Assembly (NCBI GenBank): GCA_018064365.1
Contig: JAGHVJ010000004.1
Span: 8,686-72,685, forward strand
Source: Candidatus Enterousia onthequi
Lineage (GTDB): Bacteria; Pseudomonadota; Alphaproteobacteria; Rs-D84
DNA length: 64,000 bases
Reading direction: 5' to 3'
In this document: one piece after another, positions 24,928 to 53,666 of the stretch
How positions within the stretch are numbered: the first letter of the stretch is position 1
Layout: the number at the start of each line of letters is the position of its first letter
Program-made: the position numbers and the translations under genes
Notes under the pieces: generated by a model
Database searches by the model: none
What the model was told of the DNA's origin: nothing
The model's input: the letters and a program-made list of their open reading frames with translations, nothing else

Positions 24928-25063
24928 ATTTTTTACCCTTTGTTTGATATAAGCCAGAAAATTATACATTGTATTTTGCGAATTGCAAGAAATAAAAACA
25001 AAGTGAAATGGATGAATTATTAGACACAACTGCCCCACCACCCTGCGGGCGGTCCCACCGATT

Positions 25064-25175
25064 GTCATCCCGCAGGAGTGCGGGATCCAGTTTTGCGTAT
25101 CGCAAAACTTGTGTTATTCGGCTTTATTACACAGGTCGGCTTCGCCGACTGGATCCCGCGCGTCCGCGGGATGAC
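25064..25175 (+). repeat. GC-rich hairpin-built MITE-like element, copy A
   Basis: The left end gtcatcccgcaggagtgcgggatccag and the right end ctggatcccgcgcgtccgcgggatgac are inverted repeats of each other, and each is itself a hairpin. Internal hairpins are ttttgcg-tatc-gcaaaa and gtcggc-ttc-gccgac. Confidence 0.85.
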
Positions 25176-25548: not shown

Positions 25549-25606
25549 ACTGTATACTTTATTTTAATTTTGGGGTATTACAAGTTTTTTTAACATCATC
25601 CCGATT

Positions 25607-25728
25607 GTCATCCCGCAGGAGTGCGGGATCCAGTTTTGCGTATCGCAAAACTTGTGTTATTTGGCTTTATTACGCAAGTTGCCCCCACAATGGGGGGGCA
25701 ACTGGATACCGGCCTCCGCCGGTATGAC
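25607..25728 (+). repeat. GC-rich hairpin-built MITE-like element, copy B
   Basis: Same orientation as copy A. 25601-25679 matches 25058-25136 at 76 of 79 positions, with the first 61 identical (manual alignment). The right half has different sequence but the same hairpin layout: gttgccccc/gggggcaac and ataccggc/gccggtat, ending atgac. Confidence 0.85.
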
Positions 25729-25743
25729 GAATTATGGAGGGTT

Positions 25744-28700
25744 TTATTCTTCGCTGATGTCGACACTGATTATGTCGCCGAAACTGCCGACCATTTGGCC
25801 ACCGACATAACAATGGATTTTCGAACCAATGCTGTCCATCCATTCTTGTTGTGCCTCAGTAAAGTCAGAACGGTTTTTAGCCTTCATAATTTGTGCAGTT
25901 GTGATACCGCCAACCGTTCCCAGAACCGCACCCCCAGCAAGATCAACCGTTGCACGTCCTAAACCTTTATTCCAGACATTGCCACCACTACCTGCAGCAG
26001 CAAGTTCTTTATAATTATCAGAATTTTTCATGTTCTTACATGCTTCTTCAGCTTGCTTAGCTTCTGTTGCGATTGCGCCGGCGACTGTGGCATTTGTGTC
26101 TTTCTTGAGCGAATCAACTGTCATTGTTTTTACTTGCTTAAAGGCATCATTGTTCCAATTATAATCTGTTGTCGTTACAGTCGATGACAACATATTAAAT
26201 GTACGTTGTAATTTTTCTATAGAGTCCCTTAAAGCATCAATTTCTTTTGTCACCTTGTCTGTGTCTGTGTCGTCTCTAACTTGGCCGACTCTTAGTGCAC
26301 TAGAAAAGACACCCAACGCTTCTTTCTGACACTGGTCAATTTGGATATCATACGACTGTCGCGTGTTTTCGTTGTCTTTATCTTGTTTTGCTGTACTTGT
26401 TTTCAACAAACCACCCAGACTGGTTTTTGTTTGCAACAAATCCATTGTGGCAACACCCGCAGCGGCACTCAATATACTGATGCCCGCGACGCCCCATTCT
26501 TGTCCTTTCTTTAATTTGCCATTTGCATCTGTTCTGGTTTTATCAGCCGCAACAGCTTCAGAGATTGTGTCCAATAAATATTTAGCATTAGCTCCATCTC
26601 CTTCTTTTTTAGAGGCCAACCAAGAACCGCATGTAAATGGATCACCAACCGCAAAATATGCATTTTCTATATCTTTACCTTGCATTGCATTCTGGATATA
26701 TCTGTCATCAGATTGGATTGTGACCTTGACCCGGCAGAACGAATTGTATAAATCGTTACTGGCGACCGACCCATCAAGCCCCAAACCATTTGTTGCATAA
26801 TTAGAATCCGGTCTGGTTTTATTCTTTAACTTTGCCCAAACAAATGCAGGGTCTGGATTCGCACCGGTATTTTGCGCCAAGCAAACATTTTGTTCGTGTG
26901 TCAATTTGGCGTTATATTTCGCCTGGGCCTCTAATTCTATATCAGCCAAGACCGTTTGGAACAATGATGTTGCCGCCGAATTCGATAATTGAACATCTTT
27001 TTCAATCATATACGGTGTTTGACAATCAATGTTACCACCATCTTCGTATCCGCAAACATCATGATCTCCGCCAGAGCAAGTACAGTGTTTCTTACCATTA
27101 GCATCTGTGTACTGAACACCCTCTTTGGTAATATTATATCCATAATTTTGGCCAGAATTACGCCATGCGTTGCTGACAGTTGTGATGCCGGTGCCCCATG
27201 TGCCGGTTACATCTGCATCGCCGTCCAAAATTCCCATTTTGGCAATTGCCAAACTTTCCGAACATGCGTCCGCAGATTTCACAGTTGACATACATAAACC
27301 TTGGACAATTGTGTAATCCAATACACCGCCAACCTTGTTCATAGATTTATTAAATGATTCACTTTCTGTTGAATATGTTGCAACACGGATATCGTTACGA
27401 TTACGATAGCAATTCTGATAATCTTTGCCGCACATAGATTTTACACAGTTTGATACAACGTTGCTGCACTGTTTTTTCATTTGTTCAATTGCCACATCGT
27501 TGTATGCCGTGGATAATTCTGCATTTAATGCCGCAACAATGGTCGAATCACCGTTGCCGGATTTATATTGTGGGAACAATGTCGCAAATGTGTCACTGGT
27601 CCCGCCCATATTAAATGTGTATGTATCGTCGCCCTGCATAGCAGCCATAAAACGACAATTCGCATCGGTATTTACAATCGCCGCGCAACCGTTTTCAATG
27701 TCAGTGTACACTGTTTCATTATTTATAGATTTTTGACCAGAATTTTTGAACGCACGTGTATAACATGCCGCACCCGAACCGCCACCACATGAACGCACCG
27801 CGCAAGATTTAAATGTTTCAATACATTTATTGCGCGCAGTTGTATCAAATTGTTTTGCCAATTCGTTGACGCGTGTATTCAAAATTGTTTTGCGGGATGC
27901 ATACGCCTCGCCAAAAATGTCTTCGCGCAGGTCTTCGTCTTGCAAATCTGCCTTGCTTGGTTTTTTGCCATCATTAAATGTCATAAAGCAATATTGGTTA
28001 GAGCCAATTGTGTCGGTGCATGCCGCACGGAAGAATTTACGGACATCTGTTGCCATTTGTTTGCCAGTTTTCACATTGCCGTTGGCATCTGTATAATTTC
28101 CAGCCAATAAATTGTCATCGGCACTGCCCACAGATTTCGCAGCATTGACCACAGACCAATCAACATCTTCGACACAACTGTATGGGTTTTTCGCACATGC
28201 ATTTGAAAAACATGTGTCAACAACCTTGTAGCAGGTGTTCACAGCATTTGCAGCCGCCAAAGCCGCACCGTCGGCAACCCATTGTTCAATATCGCCACCG
28301 GCATAAGAACCCAAACGTTTGTTTGCAGGTTTTGTTGTCACCTTTTCACCAAACAATTGTTGGAAACCCTCTTTTTGGCAACGAGACAATGTAGAATCGC
28401 ACATTGCTGCCTGTTTTTTAAATTCTGTATCAGATGTGCATAATTCAAAGTCTTCGCCACAAATATTATCTTTGTTCAAGCATCTTTTATATTTTTTCAC
28501 ACAATCTTCGGTCGATAATTTGTTGCGTGTCCCAGCACCAATAATATCAATTCCCATGACCGAACCATCGGTTGGGTATGTATAGCGAGCAACCTCGGTA
28601 TCGTTGGTATCGGCAACGTAATTTTGAACCTGGGATAAAGCATCCAGATTACTGGTTCCGAACAAACTGTTGATTGCGGCAGGAGAGCATTGGTAAAGTG

Positions 28701-29046
28701 TGCTGTAACATTCGCCCATATGGCCATGGAACAAAACATTTGTTGTACATTCTTCAAATTCAGAACCGCATGCCGTATCTGATTTCATACATTCACGATA
28801 ATCTTCGACACATTCTGCATCGGAAATCAAACCAGTTCCTGTCGATGAAGTTGTCGTACTGGACACAGCGGATGACGCACCACCAGATTTCACAATATTA
28901 GACAACGACGGCAGACGACGCGACGCAGCAGCAGCCACAACCCCCGTCACACCAACGCGTCCAGATGACGCCACAACCGCCGCGGTTGCCGCACCACACA
29001 CGCACATTATCGCAATAAAACTGACCGAATTTTTGAAAAGATGCAT
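25744..29046 (-). CDS. very large secreted/membrane-anchored cysteine-rich protein of unknown family
   Basis: The track ORF runs to 29052 (MEMH...). The ATG at 29046 has better AGGAG spacing. There is a signal peptide, a Ser/Thr linker, a duplicated 6-Cys module, about 40 Cys in total, and two Gly-rich hydrophobic segments plus a coiled-coil-like stretch near the C-terminus. Confidence 0.85.
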   Translation of the reverse strand: MHLFKNSVSFIAIMCVCGAATAAVVASSGRVGVTGVVAAAASRRLPSLSNIVKSGGASSAVSSTTTSSTGTGLISDAECVEDYRECMKSDTACGSEFEECTTNVLFHGHMGECYSTLYQCSPAAINSLFGTSNLDALSQVQNYVADTNDTEVARYTYPTDGSVMGIDIIGAGTRNKLSTEDCVKKYKRCLNKDNICGEDFELCTSDTEFKKQAAMCDSTLSRCQKEGFQQLFGEKVTTKPANKRLGSYAGGDIEQWVADGAALAAANAVNTCYKVVDTCFSNACAKNPYSCVEDVDWSVVNAAKSVGSADDNLLAGNYTDANGNVKTGKQMATDVRKFFRAACTDTIGSNQYCFMTFNDGKKPSKADLQDEDLREDIFGEAYASRKTILNTRVNELAKQFDTTARNKCIETFKSCAVRSCGGGSGAACYTRAFKNSGQKSINNETVYTDIENGCAAIVNTDANCRFMAAMQGDDTYTFNMGGTSDTFATLFPQYKSGNGDSTIVAALNAELSTAYNDVAIEQMKKQCSNVVSNCVKSMCGKDYQNCYRNRNDIRVATYSTESESFNKSMNKVGGVLDYTIVQGLCMSTVKSADACSESLAIAKMGILDGDADVTGTWGTGITTVSNAWRNSGQNYGYNITKEGVQYTDANGKKHCTCSGGDHDVCGYEDGGNIDCQTPYMIEKDVQLSNSAATSLFQTVLADIELEAQAKYNAKLTHEQNVCLAQNTGANPDPAFVWAKLKNKTRPDSNYATNGLGLDGSVASNDLYNSFCRVKVTIQSDDRYIQNAMQGKDIENAYFAVGDPFTCGSWLASKKEGDGANAKYLLDTISEAVAADKTRTDANGKLKKGQEWGVAGISILSAAAGVATMDLLQTKTSLGGLLKTSTAKQDKDNENTRQSYDIQIDQCQKEALGVFSSALRVGQVRDDTDTDKVTKEIDALRDSIEKLQRTFNMLSSTVTTTDYNWNNDAFKQVKTMTVDSLKKDTNATVAGAIATEAKQAEEACKNMKNSDNYKELAAAGSGGNVWNKGLGRATVDLAGGAVLGTVGGITTAQIMKAKNRSDFTEAQQEWMDSIGSKIHCYVGGQMVGSFGDIISVDISEE

Positions 29047-29129
29047 CTCCATTCTCCTATACTTTCAATTTATTTTATCATAATTATCGGAAAAATAAAA
29101 GTGCTTTTTACAAAAATACAACGATAATC

Positions 29130-30086
29130 TTAGGCAGATTCTAAAATTTCTTTCAATTCCATCATATCGTCTGGCAAAGGCGATTTGAAAGTCATCTGTT
29201 CGCCAGTAATTGGGTGTTTTAACGATAAATACGACGCGTGCAACATTTGACCGTTATGAGTTTTCAAAAAATCCAATAATTCAGGGTCTTTGACACTGCC
29301 CAGACGGGTTGAACCACGGCCATATATCGGGTCGCACAAAACAGGAAAACCATGTGCAGATAAATGAACCCTGATTTGATGAGTTCGACCAGTCAATAAA
29401 GTACAACGAAAATGAGACACACCAACACCGTTCCACACATCAACAACATTGACATGGGTTTCTGCGGGTTTGCCACCGGATTTTACCATTGTCATTTTCT
29501 GTCTGTTTCGTGAAGAACGCGCAATATTTCCGATTATGGTTGCACCCTCCCAATTTGGGACACCCCAAACAAACGCGTCATATTTGCGTGTCAAATCATG
29601 TGTTGAAAATGTTTTAACCAATTCACGATAGGCAGCATCTGTTTTTGCAAAAATCATAACGCCAGACGTGTCTTTATCCAGACGATGCACCACCCCAGGC
29701 CGCACATCACCACCCAATCCAGATAATTTTGTGTAGCACAACAAGTTTTGAACCAATGTTCCTGTTTTATTCCCAGCCGACGGATACATCACAACACCGC
29801 GTGGTTTATTTATTACGATAATATCATCGTCTTGGTATAAAATATCCAAATCAAAATCAGTCGACATATTATTTGACGCAATCATGGTATTTGATTCTGG
29901 TTCTGGGACAATAACAAAATATTGTTCGCCCAAGCGCACACGGTCTGAAAATTTTACCGACACACCACCACGCGACACAGAAAATTTTTGTATTTCACTG
30001 CGTGAAAATTCAGGCATTTTTCCACATAAAAATTTATCTAACCTAATACCGACATCTGCATCGGCAACTGTAAATTCCATTTGCAT
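29130..30086 (-). CDS. rluD: RluA-family 23S rRNA pseudouridine synthase (RluD-like, with S4 domain)
   Basis: IRLDKFL (S4 domain) ... HRLDKDTSGVMIFAKTDAAY ... TGRTHQIRVHL. The start is set at MQMEFTV (30086), 2 nt after the upstream stop. Confidence 0.85.
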   Translation of the reverse strand: MQMEFTVADADVGIRLDKFLCGKMPEFSRSEIQKFSVSRGGVSVKFSDRVRLGEQYFVIVPEPESNTMIASNNMSTDFDLDILYQDDDIIVINKPRGVVMYPSAGNKTGTLVQNLLCYTKLSGLGGDVRPGVVHRLDKDTSGVMIFAKTDAAYRELVKTFSTHDLTRKYDAFVWGVPNWEGATIIGNIARSSRNRQKMTMVKSGGKPAETHVNVVDVWNGVGVSHFRCTLLTGRTHQIRVHLSAHGFPVLCDPIYGRGSTRLGSVKDPELLDFLKTHNGQMLHASYLSLKHPITGEQMTFKSPLPDDMMELKEILESA

Positions 30087-30088
30087 AT

Positions 30089-30556
30089 TTATTTCCCATA
30101 TTTTGACCAATTTGGACCAACAGTACATTTCGATAAATCAATATTAAAATCGTAATCGCCTGTGGCCGGACACGTCAATAAACCAGTGGTTTCTGACTGG
30201 GGCGCATCGGCGGTTGCATTATGATACGCAAATTGCACTGTTTTTGGATTGGCAACACATATCAAGCGCAAATTTCCAACAACCTCGCCAGACGGGGACA
30301 CCCAAATGCGAACACTGTCTGCGGCACCATAGCAAGGAAACGCATCCAAATAATACAAAACCAAACCATTTTTTACCAATGAACGCGAACTGCCTGTGAT
30401 TTTACCACTGTATTGCGATAAAGGCAACCCGGTAACACCAGACCAATCAACCGTTGTTGAAAAAAGACTTACCCGTGGGGCCGGCATCTGCGGTGTGTCA
30501 TCTGCAAATGCGTTGACACAGCAAAAAACAGACAAAATTGCGATTATTTTTTTCAT
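30089..30556 (-). CDS. secreted hypothetical protein (155 aa)
   Basis: Signal peptide MKKIIAILSVFCCVNAFA. The mature part has 4 Cys. Overlaps the upstream gene by 4 nt (ATGA). No family recognised. Confidence 0.65.
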   Translation of the reverse strand: MKKIIAILSVFCCVNAFADDTPQMPAPRVSLFSTTVDWSGVTGLPLSQYSGKITGSSRSLVKNGLVLYYLDAFPCYGAADSVRIWVSPSGEVVGNLRLICVANPKTVQFAYHNATADAPQSETTGLLTCPATGDYDFNIDLSKCTVGPNWSKYGK

Positions 30557-31065
30557 TTTTCGAAATCCTCTAATTTTACAACAATCTTTTTGACCCCCAT
30601 TGACGGTGCACGCAAAGTATAAACAAAACCTGCACGCGCCCCCGCATCCAGTAATGTGACCGGTGGATTAAATGTTTCCGGTGCATTTACAGAATTGCCT
30701 TTTTCATCATATGTCATAATTATCAGATTTGGCGCACCGTAAATTCCGTCTGATTTATTTTCAATTATACCAGACACGATAAAATGATTTATGCCGTTGC
30801 CATCGGGTGCCAATTCTGTTTTTACGATATTTGCCACCAATGGCGAATTGTTATCTGATTTAGCATGATAATGTACCACCACCACAATCGAAAATATTAT
30901 TGCAGATAACAATGCGCACAATGCCGCCACAAAAACAAAAAATTGATTCTTTTTATTGGATGTTTTTACCATCCATGTATGACCACATATTGCACAACAT
31001 ACCGGATTGGCCGGAATTTTATTCAAACTGTATTCTGTTTTACAAAAATCACATTTTATTTTCAT
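30553..31065 (-). CDS. zinc-ribbon (MJ0042-type) membrane protein with a DUF3426-like periplasmic domain
   Basis: MKIKCDFCKTEYSLNKIP...CCAICGHTWMV (CxxC...CxxC), followed by one transmembrane helix and a beta-rich C-terminal domain. Confidence 0.7.
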   Translation of the reverse strand: MKIKCDFCKTEYSLNKIPANPVCCAICGHTWMVKTSNKKNQFFVFVAALCALLSAIIFSIVVVVHYHAKSDNNSPLVANIVKTELAPDGNGINHFIVSGIIENKSDGIYGAPNLIIMTYDEKGNSVNAPETFNPPVTLLDAGARAGFVYTLRAPSMGVKKIVVKLEDFEK

Positions 31066-31088
31066 AACATTTCCATTTATATCATAAA

Positions 31089-32408
31089 TTATTGCAATTT
31101 CAACAAACTATATTTCGCACGCACTGTATTCGCAATTTCATTTAATGCGTTGGTATAATCTGTGACTGTGGCATTTGCATTTGATGCCACCGCACGAAAA
31201 CGACGCCCAGATACGGTTGATTGGTCAAATTCTAAATCACCCAAATAACTGACCATACGATTCAAATCCCCCAGATACAAATCTGAAAAATTCGCAGTTC
31301 CATTTGCAACATTCCAATAATAATTCGGATTTGACGGAGATGTGATTTTTGATGTGACTGTTAAACGCGGTGTCACAGACCCCGCATATCCAACCGTTAT
31401 CTGCAATGCATTTATACTGCCGTAACGCATTTTGACAGAACCATTGATAGTTAAAATCACAGGTCTGTTGTCTGAATTTGTAATCGATAATGTCGGCAAT
31501 GTTAAATCTGTCACATACAAATCATTTGTTGTGAACGATGAAAATTTCGCGGTGCCAGATAAAGACAATCGGCCTGATATTTCCATATTTCTGGAATCAG
31601 CGGTCAAAGAGCCAGATACAGTCGCACTTTTAGTATAAAAAGCACCGTCAATCGTTGTTCTATTATCAAAAATCAATTCACGCGTATCAACACGACCGAG
31701 TTTTAAAAACTCATCAAACGAACCATTTATAAAGTTTATATTTTTTGTGTTCAAAATATCTTGTCCACCAAGATTTAATGACGAACGCATTGTCGCATCG
31801 TCTGGGTCATCTGTGGGGACACGCCACAGATACAATGCATTATCTCGATTTACTGCGGTTGTGCCGACGATACCAGAATCTGATGCAGCAATTCCTAAAT
31901 CAGATACAGATGTGCGCCACGAACCGTTTGCGCCATATGCATGTTTCCCATCAACAAAGCCCACATTACCCCCAGCCATATTTAATATTTGACGCGTACG
32001 AAACGGTGTAATTTTATCAGAATCATATACAACAACCCCTTGTAATGTTGATTGCCCATCAAAATCACGAGATTTAATTATACGCAATTGGTATTTTACA
32101 TCTGGGTTATTTATAATACCGTCAGACAAACCGTATTTTTCTAAATCTGAAATATCAATTCGGGAAATATGACGACCATACGGTTTTAATAACATTTCAC
32201 GATTTTCTATGATATATCGTTCCAAAGCACCTTGGATATCTGTCATTTGTCGAGTAATTGCGATATTTTCACGTCGTTCTATGGCACTGCGTTGATATTT
32301 AAATACAAATGGAATTATCAACATAGCCAAAGCAACACTCAACAACAATTCAACCAGCATACTGCCACATTGTTGTTTTAATAAAGATTTCTTATCTATT
32401 GTTTTCAT
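31089..32408 (-). CDS. large prepilin-like protein, PilV/shufflon-N-like, paralogue 3 (439 aa)
   Basis: Class III signal ...KQQCG|SMLVELLLSVALAMLIIPFVF (Glu at +5). Also carries ALYLWRVPTDDPDDATMRSSLNLGGQDILNTKNI, and has a T/S/N-rich repetitive C-terminal half. Confidence 0.7.
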   Translation of the reverse strand: MKTIDKKSLLKQQCGSMLVELLLSVALAMLIIPFVFKYQRSAIERRENIAITRQMTDIQGALERYIIENREMLLKPYGRHISRIDISDLEKYGLSDGIINNPDVKYQLRIIKSRDFDGQSTLQGVVVYDSDKITPFRTRQILNMAGGNVGFVDGKHAYGANGSWRTSVSDLGIAASDSGIVGTTAVNRDNALYLWRVPTDDPDDATMRSSLNLGGQDILNTKNINFINGSFDEFLKLGRVDTRELIFDNRTTIDGAFYTKSATVSGSLTADSRNMEISGRLSLSGTAKFSSFTTNDLYVTDLTLPTLSITNSDNRPVILTINGSVKMRYGSINALQITVGYAGSVTPRLTVTSKITSPSNPNYYWNVANGTANFSDLYLGDLNRMVSYLGDLEFDQSTVSGRRFRAVASNANATVTDYTNALNEIANTVRAKYSLLKLQ

Positions 32409-33658
32409 TTATTTATACTTTTTTTGGTTTGCCAATCAGCAGACATAATCGCACTGAATTCTGATTTGTTTGGTGTTGTGGTTATTTTTGTTCGTCCCAA
32501 GTTTAATTGTGAAAATGTCGGCATTTGTGTTGATGGAAAAATCCACGAACCGATTTTTAACGGGGCTGTACGCGACAACAATAATTCGCCAGATACAGTC
32601 AAACCAAAATCACCATAAAAAACTAAATCTGTGGTTGTCACATACGGTGTATAAACAGTATTCGCAGATATTGCTGTAAATGCATTTACGGTACGCGTGC
32701 CAGATGATTTCAATTTAAATAAATTGCCAATTCTAACCGATTTATTTATTGTCGCACTGTCTGTAATTACAGTACCTGTATTACTGAAAGTCGAACCATT
32801 TAATGTATTTGCTGTAATATTACGAAATCCGCTGATATCACCCAGCGCACGAATTGTTTCAATATCTGCATCTGCGCCTTGGATATTTGCACCAGATGAA
32901 AAATACACGGAACCAGCCACCGCATCGTCTGATTCTAGAAATGTTGTATTAGCATTTTTACCAGAAACAGTTTTTGCATCCAATACACCAATATCCAGTA
33001 AATCTTTGCCGCCCATATTCAAATTACGCAACATCGCATTCAGATTATCAGATACAGATTCTTGCGAATCTTTATCTTTTGAATTTGTTTGTGTGTTATC
33101 TGACGATGCGCCACGATGTAAAAAATTATTTCTATCTTGTCCAGAAAAATTATGCGACACACGATAAACTAAATCGCCAGGTGTAAAATCTGGGGCTGCA
33201 GCCGCCCAAGTCGCACCATATGCAATTCCGTCGTCAGACACAATTGCAGCATCACCGCCAATTTGTCGTGCAATTTGATTTGTACGCACAGCCGAATCAG
33301 ACACACGAAAAACCAAATATACATCCGTAATATTTGTTCCGCGAAATTGACGTCTATCAATAAATGCCGCAGATACCAACGGAGAAATTTCTTTGACTTC
33401 TTCGGATGTTAATTGTATTTCTGTAGCATTATCCCAATCTTCTTGATGAACACGAATATAGTTTAACGCGCCATCTTGTATATCAACGATTTTTTGTGCA
33501 ACAGATACATTTTCAATATCGTTGTATGTTCGTTGAATTTGTTTATACATAAACGGCGCAGCCACAGCAATTATTGATATGGCTAAAATAACCTCTATCA
33601 GTGATGTTCCACGCGATTCATTATTAAAAATTTTTGTTTTATATACAGTCACTGCCAC
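32405..33658 (-). CDS. large prepilin-like protein, PilV/shufflon-N-like, paralogue 2 (417 aa)
   Basis: ...NESRG|TSLIEVILAISIIAVAAPFMY (Glu at +5), VAQKIVDIQDGALNYI, and NLNAMLRNLNMGGKDLLDIGVLDA. Confidence 0.7.
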   Translation of the reverse strand: MAVTVYKTKIFNNESRGTSLIEVILAISIIAVAAPFMYKQIQRTYNDIENVSVAQKIVDIQDGALNYIRVHQEDWDNATEIQLTSEEVKEISPLVSAAFIDRRQFRGTNITDVYLVFRVSDSAVRTNQIARQIGGDAAIVSDDGIAYGATWAAAAPDFTPGDLVYRVSHNFSGQDRNNFLHRGASSDNTQTNSKDKDSQESVSDNLNAMLRNLNMGGKDLLDIGVLDAKTVSGKNANTTFLESDDAVAGSVYFSSGANIQGADADIETIRALGDISGFRNITANTLNGSTFSNTGTVITDSATINKSVRIGNLFKLKSSGTRTVNAFTAISANTVYTPYVTTTDLVFYGDFGLTVSGELLLSRTAPLKIGSWIFPSTQMPTFSQLNLGRTKITTTPNKSEFSAIMSADWQTKKSINK

Positions 33659-34994
33659 CTGCCATTAAACATTGTTTTGCATTGATTCTTTGTTCCAGAC
33701 GCGACCAAAACAAATATTCACATAATACATGTTGCGCCACAGACGATGCATTATAATTTTCGCCCATACTGGTTATCACAGATTGACAAGTCAATGTTTC
33801 ATCACTGTCGCGTTTTGGATATTTCAAAATTGCAAAATCATTATTATTTACCCCAGCCACACGGACATCTGGTAAAACAGTTGTACTGGCAGGACGAATA
33901 TCAACAATAACCGCACCAGTATCACCTGCATCCAAAGCCTTGGATGTTTGATCGCGCAATGTGATATGCGATGCAACAACATTTACCGCAGAAATTCCAC
34001 TGGACGCACTGGTTGTTACGGTAGCGTCTTCAACATACGCATCTTGGCCACTGGAAACATTTAAATAAGACCCAACCTCTAATCGTTCTGTAGTCAGGGC
34101 AATATATTCTGTTTCCATATTGCCACGCACATCCCATGTCGTCGGCCCTGTAAACCCGGTACGACCCGCCGTCATATCAAAAGAATAAACCGACGCTGTA
34201 TCCGATTCGAAATTACCCGTCGAGCCATATTCTGAAATTGTTTTACTAAATACATTCTTTGCCTTTAAAGCACCACGTGTCAATGCCAATGCCGAACCAC
34301 CAGATTTAGATTGAAAAATACTTTTATCTGCGGTCAATACGGTTATTTTATTTTTTGAACCACGCTCTCCTTCGTTGCCAGAAATTCCCAAAGTATCAAA
34401 AGTCGCACGTTCAGATACAATATTATGCCCAATTACATGGTTTACATTTTCTACGGAAAAATTATTCATATCCAAATCCGCCAAGAACGCAGAATTTGTA
34501 AGATTCGATTCGTTACGACGCACAACCTCTTGATACAATGTATTCAATGGGATACCAACCATCAAACCCGTAGTAGTGCGTTCTGCATAAAAACCGATTC
34601 TGCGAACCATTTCTGCGACTTGAACAGTTGTCAATTTACCGCCATCAATCATTAAACGTCCACTAACACCTGTTTCATTTTTATCGACAATTAAATATAT
34701 ATCTTGGCCAAATGCAGTTTGTGGTATATATCCCAACGGCAAACCATACGGTTCCAACATATCACCAAAATCATTTCCACGAATCGTTGTCTGGCCATAA
34801 GAAAGAGTATCTACATTTTCACGAATAAAAATGCGTGCCGCGGTTTGTGCAGTATCTATTTGATGCACAGAAGAATACATTTTGGCATCCACGTCATTTA
34901 CAATCAAACGACGCGTTAAAACAGGCATAAAAACAAACAGCAAAGAAATTGCCAATAATGCCTGCAACAAAAAATTTCCACGTTGATTAAACAA
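33639..34994 (-). CDS. large prepilin-like protein, paralogue 1 (451 aa; Gln at +5; TTG start)
   Basis: MFNQRG|NFLLQALLAISLLFVFMPVL, followed later by SAFLADLDMNNFSVENVNHV. The C-terminus has 4 Cys. Confidence 0.6.
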   Translation of the reverse strand: MFNQRGNFLLQALLAISLLFVFMPVLTRRLIVNDVDAKMYSSVHQIDTAQTAARIFIRENVDTLSYGQTTIRGNDFGDMLEPYGLPLGYIPQTAFGQDIYLIVDKNETGVSGRLMIDGGKLTTVQVAEMVRRIGFYAERTTTGLMVGIPLNTLYQEVVRRNESNLTNSAFLADLDMNNFSVENVNHVIGHNIVSERATFDTLGISGNEGERGSKNKITVLTADKSIFQSKSGGSALALTRGALKAKNVFSKTISEYGSTGNFESDTASVYSFDMTAGRTGFTGPTTWDVRGNMETEYIALTTERLEVGSYLNVSSGQDAYVEDATVTTSASSGISAVNVVASHITLRDQTSKALDAGDTGAVIVDIRPASTTVLPDVRVAGVNNNDFAILKYPKRDSDETLTCQSVITSMGENYNASSVAQHVLCEYLFWSRLEQRINAKQCLMAGGSDCI

Positions 34995-35153
34995 AAAACA
35001 TTCTCTCTATTTGATATTTATATATAGAGATTAGCAACAGAAAAAAGATATTGCAATCAGTTTTAAGATGTTTTATATTTGTTTTAAGTTATTGGTTGAT
35101 TTTGAATAAATAACAACCAAGTTATTTCAATAAAAAATTATAAAAGATAAAAA

Positions 35154-35486
35154 ATGCAAAATAAAAAAAATCAGTCTTCTGTTGGGTTGATGATTCAACG
35201 TTGTCATAAATGGCGTATGCGCCGCAAACAATTAACAGACCAAGCACGCACAACATCTGACGAAGTCGAACGCGAACGCTTGCTCCAGGCGGCAGAACAT
35301 TGTGTCCGTATGACAAATGCAGAACAGGATAAAATAGATTCTATCCGCGACACCAAAGAAAAAGCCGCCGCCGTAGCCGAGGCCGAAGCAGAAATGCGTG
35401 CTGCAGAAAAAAATCCTGAATCAGATGCAAAATCCGATGAAGAAGACGAAATGGGTTTTCCTGATTTCATAACGAATTTGAATTAA
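35154..35486 (+). CDS. hypothetical charged, coiled-coil-like protein (110 aa)
   Basis: A 110-codon ORF is long for an AT-rich context. It has a basic N-terminus and an acidic C-terminus (AEAEAEMRAAEKNPESDAKSDEEDE). There is no clear Shine-Dalgarno and no family recognised. Confidence 0.4.
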   Translation: MQNKKNQSSVGLMIQRCHKWRMRRKQLTDQARTTSDEVERERLLQAAEHCVRMTNAEQDKIDSIRDTKEKAAAVAEAEAEMRAAEKNPESDAKSDEEDEMGFPDFITNLN

Positions 35487-35561
35487 AAACTAATTTATAT
35501 TATTTGTTGAAATTTTACTTTTCTTTGGTATGGTGAATACTAATCAAGGAAAGTGTTTATC

Positions 35562-37100
35562 ATGGATAATAATTATACTGTATTAGCGCGTAAATATCGC
35601 AGTCAAGATTTCAAATCTTTAATTGGGCAAGATGTGTTGGTAAAAACACTAACAACCGCAATCAATACGGGGCGCATTGCGCACGCATATATTTTCACTG
35701 GAATTCGTGGAACTGGAAAAACCAGTACTGCACGTATTTTGGCCAAGGCATTAAATTGTTTATCAAATAATGGCCCAACCCCAGAACCGTGTGGTGTGTG
35801 CGAAAACTGTCGTGCAATTGCGGCAGGTCAACACATTGATGTTATGGAAATTGACGCGGCTTCGCATACAGGTGTTGATAACATTCGTGATATTTTGGAT
35901 GCTGCACAATATCGTCCAACAAACGGTCGATACAAAGTTTACATTATCGACGAAGTTCATATGTTATCTACGGCGGCATTTAATGCTTTGCTAAAAACAT
36001 TAGAAGAACCACCTGCACATGTGATTTTTATTTTAGCAACAACTGAAATTCGCAAGGTACCTGTGACAATTTTATCACGATGCCAAAGATTTGATTTGGT
36101 ACGCGTGCCGATTGAGACATTGAAAAAGCACTTTGCGTGGATTGCAAATCAAGAACAGATTGAATTATCGGATGCGGCAAATGAATTGTTGGCGCGTGCG
36201 GCGGACGGTTCTGTGCGCGACGGATTATCTTTACTGGACCAGGCAATCGCACAAACTGGTGGTCATGTTGATGAACAGGCTGTTATGGATATGTTAAAAC
36301 GCGCAGACCGTAATGTGGTTGTTGATTTTATGGATATAATTTTATCTGGGGATACTGCACGCGCGTTGGAAATGGCAGACAATATTTATACCAATGGTGC
36401 TGATTTGCTAATGTTATTATCAGATATGATGGAATGGACACATTGGGCAACGCGTATGCACCCGGCATTAAATGCGGGCGATTGCGCATCTTCGCCATAT
36501 ACTGCCGACCAACGCGAAAAAACTCGCAAAATTGATGCACGCGTGTCGTTAAATATTCTTTCTCGTATTTGGCAGGTTATGGTTGCGGCTGTTTCTGAAA
36601 TGCAAATGTCTGGAAATCAAAAACAATGTTTTGATATGTTGATTGTGCGTATGATGCATATTGCAGACATGCCAAGTGTGGCCGAGATTTTAAAGAATAA
36701 TACAACTGCAAAACCGGCACAACCTGTGCCACAACCCACTGTGCAACCCACAACACCTGCGGCAAACAAAATCACAAATTCTGCAGAACTGTTGCACGCG
36801 ATGCAGTCTGACAAAGAAATTTTGTTATGCACATATTTTTCTGAAAATATTGAAGTATGTGAAATGTCGGACGGTAAAATAAATTATTTTGACCGCAAGG
36901 GCGATACAAATTTTCCAATAAAATTATCTGCATGGTTGGAAAAACACACGGGACATCCATGGACATTGGTGCATTCAAAAGAATCTTGTAATGTCCCAAC
37001 TGCGATTGAACATAGACAACAAGAATTGGCGGCAGACCCCATGATGGCAGAGGCCATGGGATTGTTTGAAGGTGCCGAAATTGTCGAGGTTTCTAAATAA
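35562..37100 (+). CDS. dnaX: DNA polymerase III subunit gamma/tau
   Basis: ARKYRSQDFKSLIGQD, FTGIRGTGKTSTARILAKALNC, CGVCENC, YIIDEVHML. The ATG at 35562 has an AAGGAAAG Shine-Dalgarno. Confidence 0.95.
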   Translation: MDNNYTVLARKYRSQDFKSLIGQDVLVKTLTTAINTGRIAHAYIFTGIRGTGKTSTARILAKALNCLSNNGPTPEPCGVCENCRAIAAGQHIDVMEIDAASHTGVDNIRDILDAAQYRPTNGRYKVYIIDEVHMLSTAAFNALLKTLEEPPAHVIFILATTEIRKVPVTILSRCQRFDLVRVPIETLKKHFAWIANQEQIELSDAANELLARAADGSVRDGLSLLDQAIAQTGGHVDEQAVMDMLKRADRNVVVDFMDIILSGDTARALEMADNIYTNGADLLMLLSDMMEWTHWATRMHPALNAGDCASSPYTADQREKTRKIDARVSLNILSRIWQVMVAAVSEMQMSGNQKQCFDMLIVRMMHIADMPSVAEILKNNTTAKPAQPVPQPTVQPTTPAANKITNSAELLHAMQSDKEILLCTYFSENIEVCEMSDGKINYFDRKGDTNFPIKLSAWLEKHTGHPWTLVHSKESCNVPTAIEHRQQELAADPMMAEAMGLFEGAEIVEVSK

Positions 37101-37129: not shown

Positions 37130-37585
37130 ATGCAACAAGAATTAGGACGTTCTTTGATTGAAATATTGGGTGTGTTGGCGATTGGCGCAGTTATGACTGT
37201 TGGCGCGTATAAGACATACGGGGCTTTGCGTGCGAATCAAATACGCAATCTGGCAATCAGCGAAATGGAACAAGTTGCACGCGATACAAAAATTTTACTG
37301 GAAACACGCGGTGATTACACCGGTGTTTCGATTGAATATTTGGTCAAGGCCGGCGCAATTTCTAACATCAAACCACCATTGGGTGATGATTGGTATATTG
37401 AATCTGGGGTGACTGGTCAAGATTTTTCTATCAACTTGGTGAACATCAGTGATAATGATTGTGCATATTTGGCAACCAAGAAATTAGATTGGGCAAAATC
37501 TGTGTCTGTGAACAAAATTACAACGGCGGGCGCAGAAAGTTGCATCCCAGGAAACAGAAATTTAGTGTCTATTATCGTAGAATAA
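37130..37585 (+). CDS. type IV pilin-like protein (151 aa)
   Basis: MQQELG|RSLIEILGVLAIGAVMTVGAY has a short leader, Gly at -1 and Glu at +5. A C-terminal Cys pair (C111, C138) resembles a pilin D-region. A GGAGAGG Shine-Dalgarno lies upstream. Confidence 0.75.
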   Translation: MQQELGRSLIEILGVLAIGAVMTVGAYKTYGALRANQIRNLAISEMEQVARDTKILLETRGDYTGVSIEYLVKAGAISNIKPPLGDDWYIESGVTGQDFSINLVNISDNDCAYLATKKLDWAKSVSVNKITTAGAESCIPGNRNLVSIIVE

Positions 37586-49504: not shown

Positions 49505-51775
49505 ATGGTTGAGAAATTCAATATTTTATCTGCGGGCGGGTCGTCCAAGGGCCTGAACATTTTCAAATCGACGGCGTATAAAGAACACGAAGCCGGTCCG
49601 ATGGCGCAAGTGTTCTGGATTTTCCGTTGGAACGCGTCTATGTGGTTGATTTGCGCTGTGGCATTTACATTGGCATTTGTTTTAGAACACATGTGGCGAT
49701 ACGGATGGTCACCTGCAACCGCACATTGGGCTGGGTTATTCTTGCGCGATGCATTACATTCGGGGGGCATGTCGGTTATTGCTGCAGTTCCTGGTTGGTT
49801 TGCACGCGCGTTGGTTAGACCTGATTTTCCAGCGATTGTACCATTACTTCCTATTATTGTGTTTTATTTTGTTTCTGACGATACATTGACCAAGGAATTT
49901 AATCCCCATGGGTCGGATATTTATGATTCTAAATCTTCACGCAAAGCGACTGCCGATGACATTAAAAAAATGGGGCAAAATTGGAAAAATAAAGAAGGGC
50001 TATTCAATGGTTTCATGATGGTATTGGGGTATTTCAAGGACGGTAAAAAAACCAAACCATTGATGTTGGATGAAACATTATCTGCGCTGTGCGTTGCGCC
50101 TCCGGGGGCCGGAAAAACTGCTGGGGTAGTTGTTCCAACGATTGTTGATTGCGATAATGTGTCAATGATTATCAACGACCCAAAACCCGAATTAAAGCAA
50201 AAAACATCTGCGTATCGTGCAACGGTTGGACCAGTGTTCATTATGAACTGGGCGGGACAAGATGACCCTGAACGCGGTATATTTTACCCGTCATGGAATC
50301 CACTATCGCCAGAACACGTCCCGTTTGAAACAGAGCAACGCGATTTGTATATTGATACAATTTGCAAGGTTTTGGTACCAGATGCTGGTGGAACATCTGC
50401 GGACCCACACTGGTCAATTTCTGGGCGGGCTGGACTGTCTGGATTTTTGCAATACATCGTATCCAAAATAGAGCGCGCCAAGGCAGACGATTATTTTTAT
50501 GGTCGCTTGCAATCGGGCGAATTTAACCAAGAAGACGCCGATGTTTTATTAGAATATTATTTATCTATGTCCAGCAATCCAAATGCGTATGCAGCAATGG
50601 GATTATTGCAACGCGGCGAATTAAACACAATGAACTATGTTCATGTCGGCACATGGAGAAACATTCCAGACGCATGGATTGGGCACGAGGCATCGTTATC
50701 TATGATTCTTGATTGGTTAAATGCCGCACAATTGGCAAATGCCGCAGAAATGGAAGAGAGACGCAAACAAGGCGACCAAACTGTCGCGTTTGCCGACCCA
50801 ATGAAAGATGTATTAGACGATGCTGTGAACGAGGCAGTAGAGTTTGCATACGCGCATCGTTCGGTATTAGAATTGACACAATTAGCAAACACTCCTGATA
50901 AAGAACGCGGTTCTATTTTATCAACAATTATGGCGGGATTGGGTGTTTTCCGTAATGCCGCGGTACGCAATAGAACATCACATTCTGATTTCCATTTTGA
51001 AGATTTGCGCGGATTGCGCGACCCACGGGATGGAAAAATTAAACCTGTATCTGTATATCTATCTATAAACATGGTTGATGCCCAAGCATTAAATCCAATT
51101 ACAGGTATATTTATTGAGTTGATGTCGAATTATTTATTGGTGAACACCCCAGACGCAATTAGCTCAAATGGAAAACAACTGGGGCCATATCCGGTATTAT
51201 TCGTGTTGGACGAAATGCCAAAAATGCAAAAGTTGGATGCCGTTATCCAAGGGCCAGATTTGGGACGCGGACAAAAAATATCTTATTTAATCATTGGGCA
51301 AGATTTACACCAAATCCAAGAAAAATACGGTGCGGATGCCGCCGCCACAATTATTTCTACAACGGCCGCAAAAATTGTTATGCGCCAAAATGACCCAGAA
51401 ACCGCAGACCGCTTTTCAAAAATGATTGGCGATGAAATTAAAAAAGAAAAGAAAAAAGACAAAGACGGCAAAGAAACCGAAGAAACAAAAGCACCAAAGC
51501 CATTATATTCACCAATGGATATTTTGACTTTGGGCGAAGGCAAACAAATTATCATATACCAAGGTTGGTACCATAGGCCAATTGAAGCAACCCAGGAACG
51601 GTACTTTTTGGGTAAAACCGATATTCAAAAGAAATTACAAGAAAAGGTTAAAATGGGTGAATCTGCACCAATGCCAGAATTTTTGGTACCGAGCCATTGT
51701 CGCGCTATGGGATACACGGGACAAATTCGATTCATGGACCCAGAAACCAAAACTATAAAAGTCTTATCTGAATAA
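49505..51775 (+). CDS. type IV secretion coupling protein (VirD4/TraG family ATPase)
   Basis: Two N-terminal transmembrane helices, Walker A ALCVAPPGAGKTAGVVVPT, INDPKPEL, Walker B VLFVLDEMPKM, and GRGQKISYLIIGQDLHQIQEKYG...NDPETA. Confidence 0.85.
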   Translation: MVEKFNILSAGGSSKGLNIFKSTAYKEHEAGPMAQVFWIFRWNASMWLICAVAFTLAFVLEHMWRYGWSPATAHWAGLFLRDALHSGGMSVIAAVPGWFARALVRPDFPAIVPLLPIIVFYFVSDDTLTKEFNPHGSDIYDSKSSRKATADDIKKMGQNWKNKEGLFNGFMMVLGYFKDGKKTKPLMLDETLSALCVAPPGAGKTAGVVVPTIVDCDNVSMIINDPKPELKQKTSAYRATVGPVFIMNWAGQDDPERGIFYPSWNPLSPEHVPFETEQRDLYIDTICKVLVPDAGGTSADPHWSISGRAGLSGFLQYIVSKIERAKADDYFYGRLQSGEFNQEDADVLLEYYLSMSSNPNAYAAMGLLQRGELNTMNYVHVGTWRNIPDAWIGHEASLSMILDWLNAAQLANAAEMEERRKQGDQTVAFADPMKDVLDDAVNEAVEFAYAHRSVLELTQLANTPDKERGSILSTIMAGLGVFRNAAVRNRTSHSDFHFEDLRGLRDPRDGKIKPVSVYLSINMVDAQALNPITGIFIELMSNYLLVNTPDAISSNGKQLGPYPVLFVLDEMPKMQKLDAVIQGPDLGRGQKISYLIIGQDLHQIQEKYGADAAATIISTTAAKIVMRQNDPETADRFSKMIGDEIKKEKKKDKDGKETEETKAPKPLYSPMDILTLGEGKQIIIYQGWYHRPIEATQERYFLGKTDIQKKLQEKVKMGESAPMPEFLVPSHCRAMGYTGQIRFMDPETKTIKVLSE

Positions 51776-51782
51776 AACCCCG

Positions 51783-53042
51783 ATGAAAAAGTTTGGCTTT
51801 GTTTTTGTAGTGTGTTTTATATTGTCTGGTTGTGCCAATGTTATGGTTGGACAACTGGATGATGCACGCGAATCTTTTGCAAACAATGATTTTATAGAAT
51901 CAGCAACACAATTTGCAGATAATAAAAATATATCTGAACAAAACAGTTTAGAATTGTTGATAACAGGGTTAAACCAATTCCAAGCGCAAGATTATCATGC
52001 CAGCGATACTACATTTGAAGAATTTAACAAACGAAATATCAACACCACATCAGGCAGTATTTTGCGCGAAGCCACAAATATCATTGCTGGGCGTATGGCA
52101 TCTGAATATCGGCCATATATGATGGATTCTTTATTTGTGTCGTATTATCAGATTTGGGATGCAATTGGCGATGGTCGGCACGATGATGTACGCGTTATTA
52201 TAAACCAATCTTATGCACGGCAACAAGAGATGTCGCGCGAATATGCTGATTTAGTCGAAAAAAATTCAGAAAAAAACACACCAGAAAATTCTGAACTGGT
52301 ATCAAAACTGGAAGAAAACAAGGCTAATTGGGCAGCATACACAGACATTATGAATCCGGCGTTGATGTATTTGGCGGGCATTTGGTTTTTAAATGACGGC
52401 GATTTTAATGACGCAGAAACATATCTGAAACGCGCAGTCGGTATGTCTGACGGTAATTCTTATGTCGCAACAGATTTAGATTTATCTGAACAAAAAACAA
52501 AACCGACAAACACAACGTGGATATTTATTGAGTCTGGATTTGCACCACGCTTGCGTCAAGAAACTGTATCTTTGCCAATTGTCACAAATAACGGTATTAT
52601 TTGGTCGGCGGTGGCGATTGCCGTACCAGAATTTGGGCACACTACTGTTTATATCCCAGGTGTAAAACCATTGGCAGATGTAAACGCTATGTTTATGACA
52701 GAGTTTAATGAATACAGTATAAATGATGCTTTGCGCGCATTCGCCTCCACATCTGCGCGAACGATTGCACAGTCTGCAGTATATAATTCAGACAGTCCGT
52801 ATGCGGGACTTTTTGGATTGGGGGCAACTTTATTTTCTGTGGCGACAACCGATGCTGAAATTCGTTCTTGGGTGACCTTGCCAGAAAACATTGGTGTTAT
52901 GCGAGTAAATACAACTGACTTGATTGGTGGAAAATTAAATGATAAACTGGGGATTAGTTTAGATTTGAAAACATCTGGAAATTATTTAATCTATGTGCGA
53001 TTGACAGGTAATACCCCAATTGTGCATACGTTCAAAATATAA
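51783..53042 (+). CDS. lipoprotein; possibly the COG3014 / Campylobacter Cj0089-like family (assigned from memory)
   Basis: Lipobox FILSGC. 419 aa with TPR-like helical N-terminal and beta-rich C-terminal halves. Starts 8 nt after the coupling-protein stop. Confidence 0.6.
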   Translation: MKKFGFVFVVCFILSGCANVMVGQLDDARESFANNDFIESATQFADNKNISEQNSLELLITGLNQFQAQDYHASDTTFEEFNKRNINTTSGSILREATNIIAGRMASEYRPYMMDSLFVSYYQIWDAIGDGRHDDVRVIINQSYARQQEMSREYADLVEKNSEKNTPENSELVSKLEENKANWAAYTDIMNPALMYLAGIWFLNDGDFNDAETYLKRAVGMSDGNSYVATDLDLSEQKTKPTNTTWIFIESGFAPRLRQETVSLPIVTNNGIIWSAVAIAVPEFGHTTVYIPGVKPLADVNAMFMTEFNEYSINDALRAFASTSARTIAQSAVYNSDSPYAGLFGLGATLFSVATTDAEIRSWVTLPENIGVMRVNTTDLIGGKLNDKLGISLDLKTSGNYLIYVRLTGNTPIVHTFKI

Positions 53043-53060
53043 AACAAAGGAGAAACAAAT

Positions 53061-53666
53061 ATGAAAAAATTATTACCGATTGCATTGTGTGCAGTTTTGG
53101 CAGGATGTGGGGGAACTCGCGTTGTTGATTTGGATAATCAACAAGAAGTCGCAACGATGCAAGATGTGATGGAATTAGAATATCGTGATTGGGAAAAAAC
53201 CGCGGCAAATATGACAGATTCTATGTTAAAAGGTAATGCTTTGACAGGCATCAACAAACCAATTATTGCAGTGGCAAATATTAAAAACGATACTATGCAA
53301 AGATTTGATACGGATATCTTGATTAAAAAAATCCGTGCGACAATTGTAAAATCTGGGCGCGCACAAATCGCAACAAACTTTACCGGCGAAGATACAACCA
53401 GTAATACCGTGCGTGCGACACGCGGAAACGATGAATACGACCAATCTACATTTGCGACCAAGGGGACTTTGGTTGCGCCAAACATGTCTTTATCTGGGAA
53501 AATGATTCAACGCAATTTGAAATTGGAATCTGGATGGTTTTCTGCTGTGGATACACGCGTAGAATATTATCTGCAACTGACATTGACTGATTTGAAAACA
53601 GGTTTATCCGTATGGGAAGACGAACAACCAATTGTCAAAGAAGGCACACATGCCCCAACATGGTAA
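53061..53666 (+). CDS. LpoB-like (COG3417) lipoprotein
   Basis: Lipobox VLAGCG. EYRDWEKTAANMTDSMLKG...IIAVANIKNDT...YYLQLTLTDLKTGLSVWEDE is collinear with E. coli LpoB (YDWNGAMQPMVSKML...LLVDSVNNRT...LQMQLMLVQTGEIIW). Confidence 0.7.
   Translation: MKKLLPIALCAVLAGCGGTRVVDLDNQQEVATMQDVMELEYRDWEKTAANMTDSMLKGNALTGINKPIIAVANIKNDTMQRFDTDILIKKIRATIVKSGRAQIATNFTGEDTTSNTVRATRGNDEYDQSTFATKGTLVAPNMSLSGKMIQRNLKLESGWFSAVDTRVEYYLQLTLTDLKTGLSVWEDEQPIVKEGTHAPTW

Follow-up and report, generated by a model that had tools for sequence, protein, structure and literature searches.

A conserved trio of PilV-like prepilin paralogs in the chromosome of reduced-genome Alphaproteobacteria

We analyzed a 64,000-nt stretch of the genome of Candidatus Enterousia onthequi (assembly GCA_018064365.1, contig JAGHVJ010000004.1, positions 8,686 to 72,685 of the forward strand; hereafter "the window," with all coordinates counted from its first letter) and focused on three consecutive genes, termed A, B, and C, that encode large pilin-like proteins. 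These proteins were found to be related to each other and, most clearly in the case of C, to PilV, the shufflon-switched tip adhesin (a minor pilin) of the type IVb thin pilus of IncI1 and IncI2 conjugative plasmids such as R64 and TP114. They are encoded by single-copy, collinear genes in ~80 related genomes, and we lean toward a reading in which the three products act together, all of them being required as subunits of one complex that forms the tip of a type IVb-like filament or primes it. The open reading frames (ORFs) of the triplet, and of the genes downstream of it, are present at the coordinates and on the strand that an initial sequence-only reading of this DNA had assigned (a slash marks the predicted cleavage site):

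33639 to 34994, minus strand: A, PilV-like large minor pilin paralog 1, 451 amino acids (aa), TTG start, N-terminus RG/NFLLQ
32405 to 33658, minus strand: B, PilV-like large minor pilin paralog 2, 417 aa with a GTG start or 415 aa from the next start, N-terminus RG/TSLIE
31089 to 32408, minus strand: C, PilV-like large minor pilin paralog 3, 439 aa, N-terminus CG/SMLVE, the clearest Shufflon_N relative

In the ORF list, the reading frame of A shares 20 nt with that of B, which in turn shares 4 nt with that of C.

The link to PilV is clearest for C. Against the Pfam model Shufflon_N (PF04917), the window copy of C scored 23.9 bits (E = 3.5e-5; curated cut-off, 27.5 bits), and 11 of 24 C orthologs matched the model with a best E value of 2.7e-8, while many carry a precomputed PF04917 match as well. 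The kinship surfaced in this model for C, with the window copy below the curated cut-off, but not directly for A (30 members, which had no Pfam match at all) or for the B orthologs. A tblastn comparison of C with 72,556 plasmids gave 131 matching records (best E = 6e-6), and, among the matches listed, all those with a named annotation were pilV on conjugative-type plasmids, the rest being unannotated or generically annotated. An exhaustive hmmsearch of 1.84 billion representative sequences with the C profile returned 301 proteins at E ≤ 1e-3 and recovered annotated PilVs, with E values of 4e-21 and, in the case of Salmonella PilV, 2.6e-10. Upon profile alignment with hhalign, the annotated PilV of Pantoea pJZ29-03 matched C with a probability of 98.2% (E = 4e-14, 284 columns), A with 93% (E = 3.5e-7, 188 columns), and B with 17%. 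B is connected to C, both by BLASTP (E = 1e-8) and by hhalign (98.4%, E = 4e-15, 238 columns); A and C align at 92.6%, and the hidden Markov models of A, B, and C cross-match triplet members from distant lineages. A mid-protein motif, Y-L-x-R ... T-M ... L-N-L/M-G-x-x-D/N-I-x-N, which the initial reading had likened to PilV, is borne out as well: When 102 sequences of the wider family were aligned, R196 proved to be invariant and M207 at least 90% conserved, and the PilV proteins of Pantoea and Bosea bear the same block. The description of the three as prepilin-like paralogs related to the PilV constant region therefore holds. As judged from these profile comparisons, C is a true remote PilV/Shufflon_N homolog, and all three proteins can be placed in the PilV superfamily, most strongly for C, transitively via C for B, and at the profile level only for A. 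The further suggestion of a new class of giant minor pilins was overstated, since plasmid PilV proteins are of the same size (456 to 508 aa, compared to 417 to 451 aa here).

All three proteins open in the manner of type IV prepilins. Their leaders (MFNQRG in A, ending in NNESRG in B and in KQQCG in C) are 6, 17, and 15 aa long and are followed by N, T, and S at position +1 and by Q, E, and E at position +5, in agreement with the initial description. In ortholog sets drawn from 80 species-level genomes, Gly(-1) occurs in each of the 75 A sequences that cover this position and in all 78 B and all 81 C sequences; at position +5, Gln is found in all 75 A sequences and Glu in all of the B (78) and C (81) sequences, so that A lacks the canonical Glu. 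The alignment of the A orthologs displays invariant G6 and Q11 along with four invariant C-terminal cysteines (C403, C425, C442, and C450). When ORFs of at least 50 aa were scanned for a Gly followed by four residues, a Glu or Gln, and an uncharged hydrophobic stretch, four real ORFs were retrieved, namely A, B, C, and a 151-aa pilin candidate described below, together with one internal false positive in pnp. Across the 102-sequence alignment (identity down to 17%), G15, E20, and P33 are each at least 90% conserved, and its profile matched the N-termini of solved type IV pilins in the PDB (E = 4e-6), the remaining matches of this superfamily profile down to E = 0.5 being nearly all pilins or pseudopilins; PDB searches with the A family and with the B family gave no match. 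With the general prepilin models, B scored 14.6 bits for N_methyl PF07963 (cut-off, 21.2) and 13.8 bits for TIGR02532 (cut-off, 16.3), and A and C matched neither, leaving all three below the curated cut-offs; weak N_methyl matches were seen in 12 of 30 B orthologs (best E = 0.002). An AlphaFold2 model of C, built from the 102-sequence alignment, reached a mean predicted local distance difference test score (pLDDT) of 77.7 and exceeded 90 over approximately residues 20 to 170. The 24 close orthologs alone had yielded an unusable model (pLDDT 45.7), and it was the addition of 78 distant relatives and paralogs that raised the score. The model consists of a 55-residue N-terminal helix (residues 14 to 68), five to six strands, a beta-rich region of lower confidence, and C-terminal helices that are again confident. 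The C-terminal halves of A, B, and C had been described as rich in short T/S/N/G repeats; the enrichment in these residues is real (a share of 0.35 to 0.40 versus 0.27 overall), but no DNA tandem repeats were found. Taken together, the N-terminal features support an assignment of A, B, and C as prepilin-like proteins.

A fourth prepilin-like gene was found 2.1 kb upstream of the triplet, directly after dnaX, where it is followed by a lipoprotein gene:

37130 to 37585, plus strand: PilS/TcpA-like type IVb major pilin candidate, 151 aa, N-terminus MQQELG/RSLIE, with the cysteine pair C111/C138
37589 to 38260, plus strand: OmpA-domain lipoprotein (PF00691, E = 3e-11), starting 3 nt after the 151-aa pilin gene

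The 151-aa protein scored 20.1 bits against PilS PF08805 (E = 7e-4; cut-off, 22 bits), 22 of 26 orthologs matched this model (best E = 1e-5), and its profile found TcpA (E = 0.006) and CofA (E = 0.03) among PDB sequences. All 70 orthologs have Gly(-1) and Glu+5, and C111 and C138 are invariant, as in the D-region disulfide of pilins (the pairing here is predicted). The gene adjoins dnaX in ~70 genomes, and its adjacency to the OmpA-domain lipoprotein, a possible envelope partner, is likewise kept in ~70 genomes. Accordingly, the initial statement that there is no pilus machinery nearby stands for the assembly genes, but it had overlooked this pilus component.

The triplet sits in a strongly conserved chromosomal context. 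The block ompH-ompA-pilin-dnaX-DUF4167, diverging from A-B-C, a zinc-ribbon gene, the gene of a secreted 155-aa protein, and rluD, is kept in ~80 genomes, each of which has a single copy of A, B, and C, always in this order, as collinear 1:1:1 orthologs. These homologs come from metagenome-assembled genomes labeled Alphaproteobacteria bacterium or Candidatus Enterousia. The mean pairwise identity among orthologs was 0.60 in the N-terminal and 0.61 in the C-terminal half of A, 0.55 and 0.54 for B, and 0.61 and 0.54 for C, i.e., the C-terminal halves do not vary faster than the N-terminal halves. Following the distant matches of the C-profile search, we traced further triplets in other Alphaproteobacteria. 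The triplet of locus L089 (531, 455, and 653 aa) has the synteny of the window; L090 and L095 display rsmA ... triplet-recO-parC and L092 displays triplet-recO; and in L091 and L096, the triplet is followed by four opposite-strand genes and then by a zinc-ribbon gene region with rluD. The best BLAST matches are position specific (first to first, second to second, and third to third) for L089, L090, L092, and L095 and partly so for L091 and L096, which indicates that the triplication is old and that the gene order was retained.

The same search also returned ~25 giant relatives of roughly 900 to 1240 aa from other uncultured Alphaproteobacteria. One locus (L093:3551-14143) contains a tandem triplet of 1236, 1083, and 1188 aa whose members are mutual best matches, and a relative of it (L094:10001-13222) has a single 1073-aa gene that adjoins fliL and fliM; together, these observations suggest a separate triplication or concerted evolution in L093.

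What the three paralogs do can be read in several ways. The sequence-only reading had proposed a hard-wired set of alternative tip adhesins in place of a shufflon, each of which would cap a different pilus or serve different conditions, akin to a shufflon-like choice of receptors. Three PilV homologs that share their N-terminal regions but diverge in their C-terminal halves fit that proposal, as does the role of the PilV C-termini in IncI plasmids, where they reportedly determine recipient specificity (PMC9045228). Yet the copy number does not vary, each of the three genes being present once and in an unchanged order throughout; the C-terminal halves are no more variable among orthologs than the N-terminal ones; the genes are translationally coupled, so that their products are probably made together; the systematic Gln+5 of A points to a distinct, noninterchangeable structural role; and neither repeats nor a recombinase accompany the genes. 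Single-copy, position-specific orthologs in ~80 genomes and in deeper lineages, with even conservation of the two halves and no invertible repeats, thus speak against alternative adhesins, which we consider unlikely. A shufflon proper was rejected, as positions 29000 to 35600 contain no significant inverted repeats (best arms of 14 to 35 nt, mostly 70 to 94% complementary, with one exact 14-nt pair), and no credible tandem repeats and, in the window, no recombinase were found.

Fixed stoichiometry, coupled translation, even conservation, and the special +5 residue of A instead argue for three subunits that are used together rather than as alternatives. By analogy with known initiator complexes, we hold it moderately probable that all three are obligate subunits of a single complex, which would sit at the tip of a type IVb-like filament or prime its assembly. 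In such a model, each of the three would be inserted into the inner membrane by its N-terminal helix and cleaved after the invariant Gly by a prepilin peptidase encoded elsewhere. The products of the coupled genes would then join into a single tip or priming complex, a heterotrimeric equivalent of CofB or TcpB, beneath which the 151-aa PilS/TcpA-like pilin would polymerize into a type IVb-like filament. A textbook argument holds that only subunits with a neighbor above them need Glu5, and, given its Gln+5, A would accordingly be the distal-most subunit, with B and C, which have Glu5, docking below. The divergent yet conserved C-terminal domains could form a composite adhesive head that grips a partner cell or a host surface.

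Directly downstream of the triplet, three more genes follow on the same strand:

30553 to 31065, minus strand: ZitP-like bitopic protein, 170 aa, with an N-terminal CxxC..CxxC zinc ribbon, one transmembrane helix, and a periplasmic DUF3426-like domain
30089 to 30556, minus strand: 155-aa protein, secreted (Sec-type signal peptide) and containing several cysteines, its start overlapping the upstream gene by 4 nt
29130 to 30128, minus strand: rluD, RluA-family 23S ribosomal RNA pseudouridine synthase (TIGR00005, E = 3e-72, and PF00849)

The spacings of 23 nt between C and the ZitP-like gene and of -4 nt between the latter and the 155-aa gene are as initially noted, whereas the 2-nt gap to rluD applies if the internal Met at 30086 is its start and becomes a 40-nt overlap with the longest ORF. 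Among orthologs of the ZitP-like protein, Zn_ribbon_4 was matched in 19 of 19 (best E = 7.5e-10) and DUF3426 in 13 of 19 (best E = 3.1e-5), with four invariant cysteines. ZitP of Caulobacter has the same zinc-ribbon/DUF3426 architecture and is needed for the biogenesis and display of the Tad pilus (PMC5182063). The ZitP-like gene is linked to the triplet, directly or at a distance of 3 kb, in L089, L091, and L096. L096:9228-11530 holds a zinc-ribbon/DUF3426 gene, a gene for an unknown protein of ~200 aa, and rluD at ~3 kb from the triplet, with plsC, a DUF218 gene, and ftsEX in between on the other strand, and in L091:14721-16459, the zinc-ribbon gene is immediately followed by rluD. The presence of this group near the triplet in L091 and L096 implies that the ZitP-like gene and the triplet were loosely linked before the emergence of Rs-D84, the order of Enterousia. 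In the three-subunit model, the ZitP-like protein may position the machine or aid its assembly. The 155-aa protein matched no Pfam or NCBIfam model; it was found at 42 to 75% identity in 75 genomes, invariably between the ZitP-like gene and rluD. It is a possible pilus-associated secreted partner and may, by analogy, bind the tip much as CofJ attaches to the trimer of CofB and TcpF to that of TcpB. Last, rluD is probably a co-transcribed housekeeping neighbor outside the pilin system, and, because recO takes its place after the triplet in other lineages, its association is probably a matter of compact-genome synteny.

Enterousia, a member of the order Rs-D84, has genomes of 0.75 to 1.0 Mb in which the tricarboxylic acid cycle, respiration, and part of glycolysis are missing, and it has been proposed to live in dependence on a partner (PMC12306168). 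The remainder of the window is ordinary chromosome, containing gyrA, a class I transfer RNA synthetase gene, AcrB/TolC, murG-ftsW-mraY, PBP1, and accBC, and furthermore mreB, mutS, truB, der, pnp, infC, parAB, and gidB. Between A and the 151-aa pilin gene, a gene for an acidic, Lys/Glu-rich protein of 110 aa (35154 to 35486, plus strand; weak DUF4167 match, E = 5e-4) diverges from gene A, in the same position in nearly all relatives. On the other side, the gene at 25744 to 29052 (minus strand) encodes a secreted protein of 1102 aa that is rich in Cys, has a Gly-rich membrane segment at its C-terminus, and matches no family; this gene adjoins rluD on the downstream side in most relatives and evolves fast (36 to 77% identity), the protein measuring 1239 aa in the deeper lineage L089. 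A direct repeat of 79 nt, 96% identical, lies between this gene and an inositol-phosphatase gene (25058 to 25136 and 25601 to 25679, plus strand, copies 543 nt apart), and each copy includes two hairpins, CCCGCAGGAGTGCGGG and AGTTTTGCGTATCGCAAAACT; the repeat has no Rfam match, nor did an Rfam scan of the region from 24.6 to 38.5 kb yield any. A promoter and terminator scan gave counts equal to the shuffled expectation. At 9479 to 10213 (minus strand), a ComF-like gene combines a double zinc ribbon with a phosphoribosyltransferase domain, a DNA-uptake accessory protein that is kept in a very small genome. The stretch from 49505 to 53666 (plus strand), set among housekeeping genes, encodes a VirD4/TraG-type coupling protein of type IV secretion, then a 419-aa lipoprotein of no family and an LpoB-like lipoprotein. 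Because no other type IV secretion genes were found near the coupling-protein gene, secretion genes appear to be dispersed over the genome, in a Rickettsiales-like manner.

As another alternative to the three-subunit tip complex, A, B, and C might be pseudopilins of a short periplasmic filament, similar to those of type II secretion or competence systems, that exports proteins such as the 155-aa and 1102-aa ones or imports DNA for nucleotide scavenging. Type IVb systems do export proteins of their own operons (TcpF and CofJ), genes of secreted proteins lie directly downstream of the triplet, a ComF-like gene is in the window, some relatives are annotated as "type II secretion system protein" or "pseudopilin PulG," and a metabolically poor genome must scavenge. 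Those database names, however, mirror the N-terminal motif only, and the matches to NCBIfam models of GspI, ComGE, and HpsC were insignificant (E = 0.07 to 0.2), for which reason membership among the type II secretion pseudopilins was rejected. Moreover, the nearest characterized relatives, PilV, PilS, TcpA, and CofA, all belong to surface type IVb pili, and subunits of 417 to 451 aa with large C-terminal domains suit tip adhesins better than a piston. We therefore regard a pseudopilin function as improbable.

Several observations weigh against the tip-complex model itself. No recombinase, prepilin peptidase, pilus ATPase, or secretin was found by Pfam scans of 49 ORFs in the window, as the initial reading had also concluded, and neither a prepilin peptidase nor an assembly ATPase, a platform protein, or a secretin emerged in the window, in extensions of ~5 kb and 10 kb at its ends, or within 10 kb of the triplet in ~90 loci. 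A motif scan of every ORF in the window, both extensions, and the ~90 loci gave no ATPase match for the GspE/VirB11-type Walker A motif and a single chance match for the A24 peptidase motif, in a 156-aa antisense ORF; these scans cover ~10% of one genome plus ~90 related loci. No window protein reaches the curated cut-off of a Pfam pilin or Shufflon_N model, and A lacks any Pfam match. The model of C, for all its confident N-terminal helix followed by strands, retrieved no solved pilin in a Foldseek search of the PDB (best E = 0.36). ZitP homologs are common throughout Alphaproteobacteria, and the adjacency of the ZitP-like gene to the triplet may thus be incidental. The heterotrimer, the place of A at the tip, and the role of the 155-aa protein are all drawn by analogy. 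Finally, the only published genome survey of Rs-D84 names type IV pili for another lineage and not for Rs-D84 (PMC12306168).

The latter report and the missing machinery genes in the window, extensions, and ~90 loci, along with the Rickettsiales-like dispersal of genes among housekeeping genes and the VirD4-type coupling protein, would also suit a loss of the machinery, with A, B, and C as N-terminally anchored inner-membrane or periplasmic envelope proteins that perhaps work with the ZitP-like or OmpA-like protein or with a type IV secretion system; but an invariant Gly(-1) and Glu+5 across three families in 70 to 81 genomes are hard to explain without cleavage and filament packing, a major-pilin-like gene with its D-region disulfide is retained, and the absence of machinery is read from ~10% of one genome, all of which makes a complete loss quite improbable. 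As a bolder version of the tip-complex model, the PilV-type heterotrimer could be the partner-recognition organ of the whole radiation of ultra-reduced gut Alphaproteobacteria, i.e., of Rs-D84 and its relatives, and be displayed by a highly divergent type IV filament machine or by one that merged with a type IV secretion system. We put this forward as speculation with little likelihood at present. Saccharibacteria use pili for episymbiosis, and such an organ would be their alphaproteobacterial counterpart.

Compared to known systems, the triplet is closest to PilV. The N-terminal ~200 to 300 residues are homologous, comprising the prepilin leader, a long helix, a globular pilin domain, and the Y-x-x-R...T-M...L-N-(L/M)-G motif. 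The Pantoea PilV (G/GMLLQ) would even share Gln+5 with A if it is cleaved after the first of its two Gly residues. In contrast to the plasmid-borne PilV, however, the triplet is chromosomal and has a core housekeeping context, with dnaX, the DUF4167 gene, and rluD in all genomes; it consists of three fixed paralogs instead of one gene; its locus and the window contain no sfx repeats, Rci recombinase, or switchable C-terminal segments; it has no adjoining pilL-U assembly operon, unlike the plasmid loci of Bosea and Pantoea; and its C-terminal halves are conserved among orthologs rather than variable. In the literature that we searched, there was no mention of PF04917 or pili in Enterousia or Rs-D84 and no description of a three-paralog module. 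What appears to be new is a chromosomal, core-genome, three-paralog PilV module in reduced-genome Alphaproteobacteria, made up of proteins that are now annotated as hypothetical. It extends the PilV family beyond conjugative plasmids, with three fixed paralogs where the plasmid has one switchable gene. In the guts of animals and humans, Enterousia and its relatives are common; their genomes measure less than ~1 Mb, and they are thought to depend on partners. That they spend ~4 kb on three PilV-type genes, kept in the same order across deep lineages, makes these genes prime candidates for an attachment apparatus.

The 170-aa neighbor resembles ZitP of Caulobacter crescentus in its zinc ribbon, single transmembrane helix, and periplasmic DUF3426 domain, but it is much shorter than the 311-aa ZitP, and no CpaM was seen; the likeness is one of architecture. 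A second parallel for the pilin genes is provided by CofB of the CFA/III pilus of enterotoxigenic Escherichia coli and TcpB of the toxin-coregulated pilus of Vibrio cholerae, large bimodular minor pilins that, as here, go together with a small TcpA/CofA-like major pilin and with a small secreted protein of the same operon, and in which the number three recurs. The CofB trimer is the initiator complex and binds the secreted CofJ of its operon (PMC6048534), and two reports describe analogous work on TcpB and TcpF (PMC9565799 and PMC10120004). Neither the PDB profile searches nor Foldseek with the C model returned a CofB or TcpB chain, and three different genes would here replace a homotrimer; by analogy, a complex of A, B, and C could likewise bind the 155-aa protein. 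A third parallel is offered by GspI-GspJ-GspK and FimU-PilVWX, where several different minor pilins or pseudopilins, encoded by adjacent genes, form one priming complex in which the GspK-type tip subunit lacks Glu5, as A does. There is no significant family match to these proteins, and the triplet comprises three large paralogs of one family as opposed to four small proteins of different families. Should A, B, and C indeed assemble into a common tip complex, the trio would connect the trimeric initiators of type IVb pili, which are made from a single gene, to the multigene complexes found at the tips of type IVa pili and in type II secretion.

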